This document shows positions 24,290 to 39,199 of a stretch of DNA of 64,000 nt, one piece after another; positions within the stretch are counted from its first letter, which is position 1, and every line of letters starts with the position of its first letter. Made by a program: the position numbers and the translations under genes. Source of the DNA: Eledone cirrhosa (Eukaryota); contig OZ024759.1 in NCBI GenBank assembly GCA_964016885.1, positions 16,430,001 through 16,494,000 on the forward strand, given 5' to 3'. Under the pieces are notes generated by a model. The model saw only the letters and a list, made by a program, of their open reading frames with translations, made no database searches and had not been told where the DNA came from.

Positions 24290-24345
<56 letters not shown>

Positions 24346-24549
24346 GAAGTAATTCCGTCGGCAAGGTCCAGGAAAAAAGAGTGCTCTATGTAAGTTACAT
24401 AGCTTATTAGTTATGTAATAAACAACATAAGATAATTATTTCATTTACCAGTTGTTTCTTGAAAGCAAACAAATTTGCTTTCAGTCATCAGAATGAAAAA
24501 ATCCTGGTGTATTTATTGAAAGTGGATTTCAATAAATACACCAGGATTT

Positions 24550-24609
24550 TTTCATTCTGATGACTGAAATCAAATTTGTTTGCTTTCTAGAAACCACTGG
24601 TAAATGAAA
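24550..24609 (+). ncRNA. Type I hammerhead ribozyme motif (mirror copy on the minus strand at 24439-24498)
   Basis: Stem I TTTCATT/AATGAAA, CTGATGA 24557-24563, hairpin stem II, GAAA 24590-24593, stem III ACC-ACT-GGT, GUA site at 24602. Confidence 0.75.
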
Positions 24610-24634
24610 TAATTATCTTATGTTGTTAATTACA

Positions 24635-24671
<37 letters not shown>

Positions 24672-26146
24672 GGTGGTATTTTTTTATGTATGTATCAAGT
24701 TTTTATCAATAAAATCGTAATTTATATCATGAAAAAACATATCTGTGCAAATTTTCAATAAAAAATATTATGATTAAGAAAATTACGAGAAAATAAAGTC
24801 CGATTGGCGGGGAATTGAACTGTAGTTATGGTTAATAATAATATAAAAAAACTGTTTCTACATTTGACACGGCTAGCAATTTGAAGGGATGGAGGAGGGG
24901 GGAAGTCGATTATATCAACCCCAGCGCGTTACTGGTATTTTATTTTATCCACTCTGTAAGGATGAAAGACAGAATAATAATTTTCTAGTTTTGACACAAG
25001 GCCAGCAATTACCCCAGTTTATTACTGGTATTTTATTTTATCGACCCCATAGGGATTTGAACTCCGAATGGCAAGGGCCGTGACTATTGGTCAAAGCATA
25101 GCGTCCGACCCTCTACCGATACTGCCAATTCACCGCACTAAGAAAGACAGAATAATAATAATCGTGTTTACATTTGACACAAGGCTATATTAATTTGAAG
25201 GGAAGGAGAAATTCGATTAAATCGACCTCAGCGCATTACTGGTACCTTATTTTATCGACCACCCACCCCGTAAGGATGAAAAGCAAAAATGATAATTATT
25301 ATTATTGTGGAGAGAGAAGTGCCGTCTTTCATCCAGTTTGTTGAAAGGTGGGCGAGAGTGGCGAACATGGTCCGTGTGAATGGACCTGCCTTGAGGATAT
25401 GCCTGTAGATTGGAGTAGAAAGACTGGGAGAGAGCACTTTGCCCAAGCGGCCAGGGTGAGCGTGGCTTTTGTGGGATTTCTAGACGATTGACCGTTAAAG
25501 TCTCTTTACCTCTGGGGAAGTTATGTTTGTTTTAAATGTTTATATGTTTATTTTCTTGGTCTCTTTTATAAATTTTATTTTTCACAAAAAAAAAACCCCC
25601 CAAAAACCCCGTCCTGTATCATCTTTCATGTGAGCCCTGTGTGGCTAATAAAGAAAAAAATGATTATAACGGTTTCTGCTTTAGGTACAAAACAATATTG
25701 GAGAAAGGGAAAGTCTATGAAATCGACTTTAGTACGTTACTGGTGCTTTATTGTATCGACACCCCGTAAGAATGAAAAGGCATAATAATACTAGTAATAA
25801 TAATAATTGTTTCTACTTTTGACACAAGGCCAGCAATTACCCAGTACATTACTGGTACTTTATTTTATCGACCCCGTAAGGATGAAAGGCAAAGTTAACC
25901 TTAGTAATAATAATAATTGTTTCTACTTTAGGCACAAGGCCAGCAATTACCAGTGCATTACTGGTATAATAATAATGATTTCTTTATTGGCTGACATCAA
26001 GAAAAACATTACAGACGGAACAGGACGGTACGATGTGGGTTTTGTGCGTGTAAAGATTTTTATTATTTATAAAAGAAAAAAAAAAAGACATAGAAACATA
26101 TATATATATAAACAAATAATAATAATAAACAATGCAGGTACGTTAC

Positions 26147-26197
26147 CCAAAACACTGAGTCGTTGCAAATTACAGCTAACGGTCCTGAAGTGGACAT
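26147..26197 (-). CDS. ABCC1: ABCC1/MRP1-like transporter, coding exon 1 (MSTSGPLAVICNDSVFW)
   Basis: ATG at 26197, 17 codons ending C..FW then GT donor. Matches the short MRP1-type first exon and joins in phase 0 to NVSLTW. Confidence 0.8.
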
Positions 26198-35306: not shown

Positions 35307-35349
35307 ATGATATATATTCAACGTCCAGCCCATTCATCAGATGAAATAG

Positions 35350-35417
35350 TTCATCTGATGAACAGGCTGAACCTTTTTATAAGGATCGTCTAATTTCTTG
35401 AAACCTTTGGTAATGGA
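35350..35417 (+). ncRNA. Type I hammerhead ribozyme motif, same family as the 24.5-kb element
   Basis: TTCAT-CTGATGA(35355)-imperfect stem II-GAAA(35400)-CCTTTGG-TA-ATGGA. Downstream ~100 bp is homologous to the 24.4-kb element. Confidence 0.65.
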
Positions 35418-36485
35418 ATAATTATATTGTGTTGTTTATTATGTAATTAAAATTAAATAGCTCTGTACTGTACAAAGAGCACTCTTCTTTCCTTTACATT
35501 TTCTACGGAAATACTTAACACACACACACACATATAGTTGTTGCTAGCGGTCCTTTCACTAAATTGTAAATTTACTCTAATTTATTCATTTGAATAAAAT
35601 GGTACTCCTCTTACATTGATGCCCTTAAACATGTACTTATTTTACAAAATGGTTAATCCAGTCAAGATTACAAGGGAACCAGATGTAGTTTATATCAACC
35701 AGTAAATTTTACTTTAATCTTTAATCTATTCTGGATTTCTTGAAAATTACTAACAATTGTGTCAAGTCAAGATTTTCTGTTTTCTGTCTCAAATTCAGCT
35801 CTTGATATTTCATTAGAAATATATGGTAGTGAAAGTGTGTATGTTGTTTAAGTAATATTGTCCTATTATAACGAGCTGTTAATATTTCACGAGAAATATG
35901 GTAATGAAAGTGCTAATAAGCAAGTTTGTTTTGAAACAGCGAGCGAATTTGAAAATAGAAACAGAATCTTTCACCATATTTTTAACTAAAGAAATTTTAG
36001 CCTGATAGTGGGGTTTAGCACCCTCTAAGAAATAGAAAAAGACGAGTATTGATGTACATGGGAGTCAAACCCACATCTTTGGTTATCCAGACTACTGTGC
36101 TACCATTACAATAACATAGTAACACAGTGGTCTGGATAATCAAAGTTGTGGGTTCAAATCCCATGTAATGTCAAAACTCATCTTTTTCCATTTCTTAGAG
36201 TGTTTTAAATCCCACAATCAGGCTAAAATTTCTTGAGTCAGAAATACAGTGAAAGTATTAATGTGGTTTAAGTAATATTGCCCCAAATTGTCAAGTTGTT
36301 TATAGTAACAAGCTGTTAAGTTTTAAAGAAATGTTTACAATGTCATTTTAAGATAGCAACATCATGATGATGCTGTACTTCCTTAACAGAATACTGGCAC
36401 AAAATAGATAAACAGTAAATAACATAGTGATAACATATCTCTCTTGTGCGGGGATACAAACTTAGACACACACATGCATATATAA

Positions 36486-36529
<44 letters not shown>

Positions 36530-37058
36530 CATCATCATCATCATCATCATCATCATTTTACGTATGCTTTTCCCTGCCTGTAAGGGTGGGACGGGAACTG
36601 ATTCTGGCTTGATTTCTACAGCTGGATGCCCTTCCTAACACCAACCTCATTTACAGTGAGTGCTGGGTGCTTTTTTTCTGTGGCACCTCCACGTCCACTT
36701 TACAGTGTGGGCTGGGTGCTTTTTTGCCGTGGCACCTCCACGACCACTTTGCAGTGGAATGGGGTCCCTATCATCTCATTTCTACAGCTGAGTAAACTGG
36801 AGCAATGTGAAATAAAGTGTCTTGCTCAAGGAAACAACACATCACTCAGTCTGAGAATTATACTCACAACCTTTCGATTGCAAGGCCAATGCTCTAACCA
36901 CTAAGCCATGTGCCTCCACAATATATTATATATATATATAATTAGAATTTAGCTTTGACAAAGCTGTATACAAATGTGTATATGAATTTTGTATACAGAT
37001 ATATTCATATACACATTACAAATGTGTATATGAATATATCTAAAGATAGATATATGCC

Positions 37059-37118
<60 letters not shown>

Positions 37119-39199
37119 AACACACATACACACACATTCATAGCTGTGGTTTTCAAAATGTTTATTTAAAAACATATCGTATATCTTTAGATATACGAAA
37201 TTCACACACACACTCACACACATATATATCATCATCATCAACATGATCATCACCGTTTTACGTCCATTCTTCCACACTAGCATGGGTTAGACGGGTATTT
37301 ATTTTATATTTATATGTCATTCGACTTTTAATTTAATATATATATATATATATTTATGAAATAAACAACACAATATATATATATGGCTTAGTGGTTAGAC
37401 CATTGGCCTTGCAATCGAAAGGTTGTGAGTTCAATTGTCAGACCGGGTGATGTGTTGTTTCCTTGAGCAAGACACTTTATTTCACATTGCTCCACTTTAC
37501 TCAGCTGTAGAAATGAGATGATAGGGACTGAGGTCCATATCATTCCATTGCAAAGTGATCGTGGAGGTGCCACGCCAAAAAAGCACCCAGCCCAGACTGT
37601 AAATGAGGTTGGTGTTAGGAAGGGCATCCAGCTGTAGAAATCAAGCCAGAATCAGTTCCCGTCACACCCTTGCAAGCAGGGAAAAAGCGGATGTAAAATG
37701 AAATGATGATGATGAGATATATATAATTGGTGTTGGATGCTTAAAGGGTCCGTATGTGGTACTTTGCTCTATGAGAGCATCGAATGCTCATACGGCCTAC
37801 CACATACGGACACTTTAAGCATCCAACACCAATTATATATATCTCATCATCATCATCATTTCATTTTACGTACGCTTTATAATGGTTTCTAATTTAGGCA
37901 TAATCTAAAAGAGGAAGAGTAATAAAAAAAAATTACTGATAATTGCTCATTCATTTATCAGTAAATTTGATCCCATTAATAAATTGTCAATATTTTGTTG
38001 AATTCCTTTTAGGGAATGCCCATAACTTTTCATAGATATTTACATTTTAACCTTATTATATTTATTTAGGCCAGTAAAGTAATTTAACCTGTTCTACTAC
38101 AAGCAATTTTGATTTTTAAAAATTGTTCTCTATCACCATGAGTTGTCATATTCACAACATCACACCCCTTCCATAAACTTTATATCAAACAAATGAAAAA
38201 AAAAGAGGATAAAATTATGATAAACCATAGAAAAACTGGAATTTGGAAAATATTATTATCAAAAATAAAGAAAAATAAACTGGAAAAAATTATATAGAAC
38301 AGTGATTCTCCAATGGATGACACTTGACTCTCAGGAAAGGAATTTTAGCCAGAAGATTTTAAACAGGTACAAACACTTTAAAAAATGGTGGTGTGTGGCT
38401 TAGTGGTAAGTGTCTTGGACATACAAACATAATGTTGTGGGTTCGATTCCTTGACTGGGTTGTGTGTTGTGTTCTTGAACAAAACACTTCATTTCATGTT
38501 GATCCAGTATACTCACCTGAGTATACTGGAGCAATAGCTGGGGGTTTAACCACATGATGGACTGGTATCCTCTCCAGGGACAGTCTTGTACTCTTAGTTG
38601 CTTAATGTCACAGAAACTGGGATAAATTCTGGTTTGATGAGTATCCAGGCTCAAGAGAGACTTTAGAAATACTTAAACATAAACAGTTTTGTATCATAGG
38701 ACCAGGAGGGGGGGAGTATCAAAAGTGTTAATCTTTATGGGTTTTTACTCTTCAAAGTTGGGGTTATAAAATTCTAAAGTGCAAATATCATCATCATTAT
38801 TTATTTATTTCATCGGGGTCAATAAAATAAAGTACCAGTAATACACTGGGATAATTGCTGGCCTTGTGCCTAAAGTAGAAACAATTATTTATTTATTTCA
38901 AAATATTGTACTTAAATGGTGACATATTGCTAGAGCAATTGGAACATTGGATAGAATGCTTTATGGCATTTGTTCCAGCTCTAACACTCTCTGAGTCAAC
39001 TTTGCTTTTCATCATCTATTTCTCACATCCTCTCTCTCTTTCCCTTTCCTTATTTGGTAGTAATCAGTTATGTCGAAACAGAGAAGGATGGGCCCTGCTA
39101 GGTTCAAAATGCCCAAGACATTGTATGTCCCTACGGTGCTTCTACAACTCCACCAGGAATTACATGTCCAGGTGCACATATATATATACATACATGGTG

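Follow-up and report, generated by a model that had tools for sequence, protein, structure and literature searches.

Hammerhead motifs that stand alone or as opposite-strand pairs 100-700 bp apart have been regarded as probable truncated Penelope-like elements (PLEs; Cervera and De la Pena 2014, PMC4209133). Insertions of PLEs are described as carrying an inverted, 5'-truncated copy and a one-sided tail, with a bias toward (TA)n (Craig et al. 2021, PMC8557442), and as showing head-to-head palindromic junctions and solo pseudo-long terminal repeats (pLTRs; Arkhipova et al. 2013, PMC3846280). For the anole Poseidon element, the tail was found in vitro to be set by two reverse transcription start sites (Frangieh et al. 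2024, PMC11167929), and Poseidon pLTRs overlap the start of the open reading frame (ORF). Published PLE hammerheads cleave poorly alone, or need protein (PMC11167929 for protein). In Octopus, PLEs are abundant and recently active, with 31 recently active Penelope-like families in Octopus vulgaris. Here, we analyzed a 64-kb stretch of the genome of the octopod Eledone cirrhosa (assembly GCA_964016885.1, contig OZ024759.1, positions 16,430,001 to 16,494,000; hereafter the window, in whose positions all coordinates are given), which contains four short elements, A to D, with hammerhead-shaped motifs. We consider them probably to be dead, 5'-truncated 3' ends (pLTRs) of three Penelope-like families, with a fold-back that was likely made per insertion.

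With the hammerheads from pLTRs of endonuclease-positive (EN+) PLEs (PMC4209133), the motifs share the type I topology, the CUGANGA/GAAA/NUH core, a long helix II, a palindromic or near-palindromic helix III, AU-rich flanks, and the occurrence as several families per genome, mostly solo or in opposite-strand pairs that stem from truncated elements. They differ in a helix II of up to 10-11 bp, a stem I of 5-8 bp and the octopod host (the molluscs noted in that study include Lottia and Crassostrea), and, because the unpaired H after A9 and the G10.1-C11.1 pair of its consensus are missing, they were not filed under the 2014 minimal consensus. Like the inverted-pLTR insertions of PLEs (PMC3846280, PMC8557442 and PMC11167929), the elements have a head-to-head 5'-truncated inverted copy with a palindromic junction, a tail at a single end, an AT-rich or (TA)n target and no visible target duplication, whereas the tail of A and D measures 57-65 nt versus 30-40 and no ORF start follows the ribozyme. 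Compared with animal retrozymes of the non-LTR type (Cervera and De la Pena 2020, PMC7229834; Li, Clavereau and Pollet 2026, bioRxiv 10.64898/2026.07.22.740005), the elements are likewise non-coding, 150-400 nt long, low in GC, PLE-related and equipped with a type I hammerhead; however, retrozymes form head-to-tail tandems and circular RNAs, while A to D are dispersed, head-to-head and truncated. By the tandem criterion the elements are thus not retrozymes, though one contig has a 111-nt head-to-tail joint (see below). Judged from sequence, their anatomy appears to work like that of a PLE pLTR end, with an apparently incomplete PLE membership.

Hammerhead motifs and fold-backs beside (TA)n runs

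The four elements were all located where the initial annotation had placed them (A, 24343-24640; B, 31546-31796; C, 34304-34678; D, 35318-35518; Table 1). A type I descriptor (CUGANGA, stem II, GAAA, paired 15.2-16.2, UH and stem I) was run on both strands of the window, a check proposed in that annotation, and returned five motifs, all within A, B and C, with C3 at 24491(-), 24557(+), 31749(-), 34403(-) and 34537(+). Local dinucleotide shuffling, repeated 100 times, gave 0.02 motifs on average and never more than one, so that no shuffle reached the observed five. Because A and C each carry two mirror copies, the five motifs correspond to three independent insertions. The motif of D (C3 35355, plus strand; GAAA 35400-35403, GUA 35410-35412) was found by a loose regular expression only: it has stems I and III and fails the descriptor at stem II, which is lopsided, a 9-11-bp hairpin preceded by 1-2 and followed by 8-9 unpaired nt. 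In total, there are six type I hammerhead-shaped motifs in the four elements, and the core (C3-U4-G5-A6-N7-G8-A9, G12-A13-A14-A15.1 and U16.1-H17) is present in all of them, while three helices round the core, with stem I open, are found by the descriptor in five. The claim that each element carries a hammerhead stands for the core, and for the full architecture everywhere except in D, whose stem II is broken. A relaxed descriptor (one core mismatch, four unbroken stem II pairs) hit A main only and gave no additional decayed motif. An alignment of the six motifs with MAFFT did not bring the cores into register, and pattern scans of metagenome and viral contigs gave no match, as expected for animal DNA.

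In the main copy of A, CUGAUGA lies at 24491-24485 and GAAA at 24458-24455, and cleavage at the GUA site is predicted after 24446. The inverted arm of C has a stem II of 10 pairs and a palindromic AU stem III, and stem II of B comprises 3 bp. The pair at 10.1-11.1 is C-A in A (U-A in the majority of its family), G-U in C and U-U at the stem base in B, and is unpaired in D. Stem III is limited to 1-2 bp, and its loop is palindromic or nearly so: positions 15.2-16.2 together with loop 3 form a perfect palindrome in B and in the inverted arm of C, with one central mismatch in the inverted-arm (majority) form of A and three in D. Predicted self-duplexes reach -5 to -10 kcal/mol in five of the six motifs and -0.4 for the main arm of C. 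Within whole elements, stem I has a predicted probability of about 0, compared with 0.03-0.77 in isolated motifs.

A, C and D are head-to-head fold-backs, as expected from the PLE-like inverted structures that had been proposed. Their arms differ at 4 of 114 positions in A, 4 of 156 in C (with a 21-nt spacer between) and 6 of 28 in the short arm of D; the self-complement scores of A and D were equalled by none of 1,000 shuffles. The junction of A shows a 3-nt overlap and a 5-nt loop (24522-24526). Two of the three inverted repeats had been called complete; A is not, having a one-sided extension of ~65 nt, and C probably has one of ~42 nt. Hairpins in the tails were not significant (z -1.6 and -1.2). 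Microsatellite neighbors were confirmed throughout, with a TA run of at least four units at both ends of A, B and C (including 34286-34306 at the left of C and 34679-34688 directly after its putative tail), and TA at the left and a short CA/TA run at the right of D. TA runs at both ends occur in ~0.2% of random 220-375-nt intervals of the window, and all four elements have an AT-rich or (TA)n setting.

A and D are one family: they share 74% identity across a 124-nt alignment that begins in the 3' strand of stem II and extends to the end, with a score that none of 500 shuffles reached. B, C and a further palindrome, E, matched neither one another nor A/D, so that the idea of a single family uniting A, B, C and E was rejected; the estimate of at least three families (A/D, B and C) was thereby upheld. 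The cluster had been drawn as far as 37869, the right edge of E, which is without an intact core. The arms of E include part (~30 nt) of the (ATG)n tail that belongs to an adjacent short interspersed element (SINE), as if fold-back synthesis had entered flanking DNA, and its left arm is faintly like a decayed hammerhead that would need three core changes and was not matched in the relaxed scan. In B, positions 31570-31715 show weak tail-to-tail self-complementarity, with a mirror side that opens with CTGAT before a stem III-like motif; an old tail-to-tail fold-back was considered for B and rejected, as 4 of 1,000 shuffles matched it, which is weak given several tests.

Table 1. Positions and strands of the elements and of the probable first exon of the neighboring gene
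Feature	Position	Strand	Remarks
(TA)n target left of A	24294..24341	.	
A, one-sided 3' tail, ~65 nt	24343..24407	-	missing from inverted arm, common to D
A main, 5'-truncated copy; putative pLTR-like 3' end	24343..24529	-	other copies match up to 24529
A main hammerhead	24439..24498	-	stem I 7 bp, stem II 10 bp
A inverted, tail-less head-to-head copy	24527..24640	+	second motif (C3 24557), cleavage predicted after 24602
(TA)n target right of A	24639..24668	.	
Probable first coding exon, ABCC1/MRP1-like	26147..26197	-	weak match (E 5e-4); ATG and GT donor
B, single copy	31546..31796	-	flanked by TA at 31530-31545 and 31797-31818; 3' end approximate
B hammerhead	31716..31754	-	stem I 5 bp, CUGAAGA, palindromic AGUACU, CUU site
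C, inverted arm with hammerhead	34304..34459	-	C3 34403, predicted cut after 34359
C, 21-nt spacer and main arm with hammerhead	34460..34636	+	C3 34537, predicted cut after 34581
C, putative one-sided tail, ~42 nt	34637..34678	+	single copy, proposed from position alone
D, short inverted arm, 28 nt, 4-nt loop	35318..35345	-	after (TA)n 35246-35303
D main copy, A family, degenerate hammerhead	35350..35518	+	tail as in A; ends at CA/TA run
E palindrome	37684..37869	.	without intact hammerhead core; unrelated to A-D

Copies of the A/D family in reads and contigs

Element A (query 24345-24560, 80% likeness) was compared with four sequencing runs, and the results of this section hold for the A family only. 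We obtained matches to 2,558 contigs in run X1, 4,120 raw reads in X21, which has the same species label as X1, and 29 contigs in X4, from a second organism; run X11 gave no contigs on A, which is no proof of absence. The A family is thus abundant, although read and contig depths on A are not copy numbers. The depth in X21 falls from ~1,090 at 24513-24520 to 19 at 24537-24544, a ~50-fold drop beyond 24529, only 17 of the 4,120 reads fit both arms, and opposite-strand joints are found at other points, each in 3-11 reads or one contig; therefore, the centre of the A hairpin is private to this locus. A centre of this kind, together with the other inversion points, indicates that the fold-back was likely made anew at each insertion. 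In addition, a common AT-rich sequence (agreement 0.67-0.77) extends behind 24529 in 358 reads, 30 contigs of X1 and 3 of X4, from which it follows that A is a 5'-truncated piece of something longer; this continuation is of low complexity and visible for 30 letters only. Another 277 reads depart at 24520 with mixed sequence. The non-autonomous nature that had been suggested for these elements, with amplification as short or fold-back units, received no support from these data, considering the collapse of depth past the centre, the scarcity of two-arm reads and the 5' continuation.

At the other end, 256 reads and 23 contigs pass into (TA)n at 24408, the same point at which the inverted arm of A stops, and the X1 depth about doubles above 24408. 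A second cluster of 3' ends lies at ~24343-24351, where the main arm of A and D end. The A/D family thus has a tailed and a tail-less 3' end, the recurrent ends being ~57-65 nt apart.

Variation within the family mostly keeps the stem pairs. Among 40 of the 62 variant rows, none of the 11 invariant core positions varies, while N7 and loop 2 do, and five of the six variable stem positions keep or restore pairing. The family majority restores both mismatches of A, at 24453 (88-100%) and 24484 (60-74%), one of them being the 15.3-16.3 pair that is broken in A main and restored in 88-100% of the family, and three of the four other stem changes keep a G-U pair. The minority bases of A at 24484 and 24520 are common to both arms, and the arms therefore derive from one template lineage. 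Loose ends, inspected by eye, point to subfamilies with a different stem II on the same 3' end, and a variant with D-type stems II and III has its loose end at 24450 in 31 contigs. Finally, one contig joins 24517 back to 24407, and three reads maybe show the same head-to-tail joint of ~111 nt.

Formation of the elements and competing explanations

The origin from PLEs that we consider probable draws on what was observed for the A family, namely its abundance, its locus-specific centre, the two recurrent 3' ends, the 5' continuation and the mostly pair-keeping variation. A PLE GIY-YIG endonuclease would have nicked (TA)n, and reverse transcription would have begun at one or other of two set positions lying 3' to the ribozyme (separated by 57-65 nt in A/D), which would give one tailed and one tail-less end. 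Synthesis would have covered 170-250 nt before ending 5-80 nt upstream of the core, and a second copy of the same template would have been joined head-to-head via the 3-nt overlap, either because the cDNA snapped back or because the second nick served as a primer. For A, the fixed end at 24408 favors priming from two nicks, while the short arm of D is compatible with snap-back or with erosion at a later time. The motif is predicted to cleave in the parent RNA only when dimerized or assisted by protein, the need for a dimer being deduced from the short stem III (1-2 bp) and its palindromic or near-palindromic loop. The motifs in these relics are predicted to be silent because the 110-160-bp arm duplex sequesters them.

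Several points weigh against this explanation. No GIY-YIG or PLE-type reverse transcriptase was matched in 398 of the 508 stop-to-stop frames of the window (397 filtered frames of at least 45 aa and the long ORF of a long interspersed element, LINE; frames of low complexity, in tandem repeats or overlapping the LINE were left out), which confirms the absence of a PLE ORF reported in the initial annotation. No open frame follows the ribozyme, every frame stopping early, by which an ORF start as in Poseidon was excluded. A GIY-YIG ORF ending at the core UGA was considered as well (frames STFNKYTRIFSF in A and WIVKVSFLNMSIFIKQTLYFI in C) and dropped, as neither frame showed a convincing motif and the sequence continuing upstream of A is of low complexity. 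The covariance-model check did not support the annotation, with no Rfam hammerhead at E<=10 in the whole window and in three sub-scans of 76-91 nt (D and the second-arm motifs being covered by the whole-window scan only), and all six motifs lack two features of the published consensus, the G10.1-C11.1 pair and an unpaired H following A9. In the family data, the depth of restriction-site-associated DNA (RAD) reads on A may be dominated by a few loci, the 80% likeness cut-off favors conserved reads, the invariance of the core is by itself not significant (p ~0.12; 32 of 185 background places), and the stem change at 24464 breaks a pair. Moreover, the A/D tail exceeds the usual 30-40 bp, and the inverted arm of D does not end at the site equivalent to 24408. 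Overall, the interpretation of the initial annotation is partly supported.

It is possible, and we hold it as a tentative alternative, that the parents were short, non-autonomous master elements, either solo-pLTR mini-elements or monomers of the retrozyme type, which borrowed PLE proteins, with the same mode of insertion and an ORF-less parent. Such masters would explain why none of the four elements has coding sequence, why all four 5' junctions lie at most 80 nt from the core and why the family is so abundant, and the head-to-tail joint of ~111 nt would be in line with them; retrozymes derive from pLTRs and exist as dispersed monomers (bioRxiv 10.64898/2026.07.22.740005), and a trans action of pLTRs is possible (PMC3846280). 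However, the window contains no head-to-tail tandem arrays of these units, many reads extend 5' of A with common sequence and without a fixed 5' boundary, and short 5'-truncated copies are an ordinary product of PLEs.

Mobilization of hammerhead-bearing retroelement ends by a non-PLE machine, such as the RTE-like LINE of the window or Naiad, is far less likely: an intact ORF with APE endonuclease, reverse transcriptase and PHD finger does lie at 47469-50804, and Octopus Naiads favor (TA)n, but the LINE and SINE ends in the window have (ATG)n/(CAT)n tails, which A to D are without, Naiads are reported without canonical hammerheads (PMC8557442), and a one-sided tail with head-to-head duplication is a PLE trait. 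Miniature inverted-repeat transposable elements (MITEs), that is, DNA transposons with a fortuitous ribozyme motif, would share the palindromic shape, the TA context and the size of 200-370 bp; for A this is largely refuted by the read comparison, as copies of its family have no common fold-back centre and run past the centre, and its arms are unequal; B, in turn, is not a clear fold-back, so that we give this explanation hardly any credence. Even less probable are motifs arisen by chance in AT-rich DNA, or palindromes made by assembly. Along with the missing Rfam match, the minimum-energy folds are predicted to be 0.5-6 kcal/mol more stable than the hammerhead folds, and the whole A stretch is spanned by none of the listed contigs; on the other hand, the number of motifs far exceeds that of the shuffles, the arms differ by 3-4%, their ends match family-wide junctions and the variation is mostly pair-keeping.

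Genomic setting and significance

The minus strand carries exons of an ABCC1/MRP1-like gene between 20627 and 600; the one at 6954-7304 has 92% identity to the ABCC1/MRP1 protein of Argonauta hians and 87% to that of Octopus bimaculoides, and the remaining named matches are at ~60%, which marks the host as an octopod. Given the probable first coding exon (Table 1), A would lie within ABCC1 intron 1, and B, C and D would be 5-9 kb upstream of the gene. A tandem array with a 45-48-bp unit and three open frames occupies 709-3232 within an ABCC1 intron. A gene for an M17 leucine aminopeptidase, oriented divergently to ABCC1, has exons at 60311-63192 (+), and a lone weak C2H2 zinc-finger match, perhaps a transposon remnant, was found at 39258-39428 (-; E 7.5e-5, below the cut-off). 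Among the repeats, the sole reverse transcriptase of the window belongs to the APE-type LINE at 47469-50804 (+), with an intact 1,110-aa non-LTR ORF in which the PHD finger lies behind the reverse transcriptase, and which we take to be RTE-like; a 3' fragment of a similar LINE lies between C and D (~34745-35245, -). Near-perfect 90-bp tandem arrays at 44606-45175 and 51149-55600, whose last part resembles repeated LINE C-terminal motifs (RWLGHVLR) on the minus strand, are possibly a satellite derived from a LINE end. An inverted pair of a high-copy SINE (30612-31136) and a further fold-back (36035-36167; ~134 bp, 79% palindrome) complete the picture.

Hammerhead ends of the PLE type are already known in other animals, from which those described here differ in small respects, the longer tail and the non-canonical base of stem II. 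Judged by titles and the opening parts of abstracts, our literature searches gave no report of a hammerhead from an octopod or other cephalopod, although the supplements of PMC7229834 and PMC4209133 may list Octopus, and the octopus repeat literature examined mentions neither hammerhead nor ribozyme. The significance is modest, in that PLE-type hammerheads are extended to octopods. Palindromes of this kind risk misannotation as MITEs or microRNA precursors; A itself matches a microRNA model of Rfam at 64 bits, below the model threshold.

The interest would be higher if the reading with ORF-less parents held, along with editing of the duplexes. A bolder proposal, which we regard as rather improbable, is that octopods harbor very abundant ORF-less, PLE-moved hammerhead mini-elements, whose two fixed 3' ends prime both nicks at once and whose ribozyme heads are exchangeable. 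If the parents were ORF-less, the 3' ends ~60 nt apart would make every insertion a head-to-head hairpin, a non-canonical stem II base (U-A or G-U for G-C) would be found on exchangeable heads over one tail, and the family would offer a genome-scale test of twin-site priming in PLEs. In a lineage known for extreme RNA editing, thousands of intronic 110-160-bp duplexes would then be a major substrate of ADAR. The A/D family, which combines two sharp 3' ends with numerous independent inversions, is good material for testing how the inverted ends of PLEs form.

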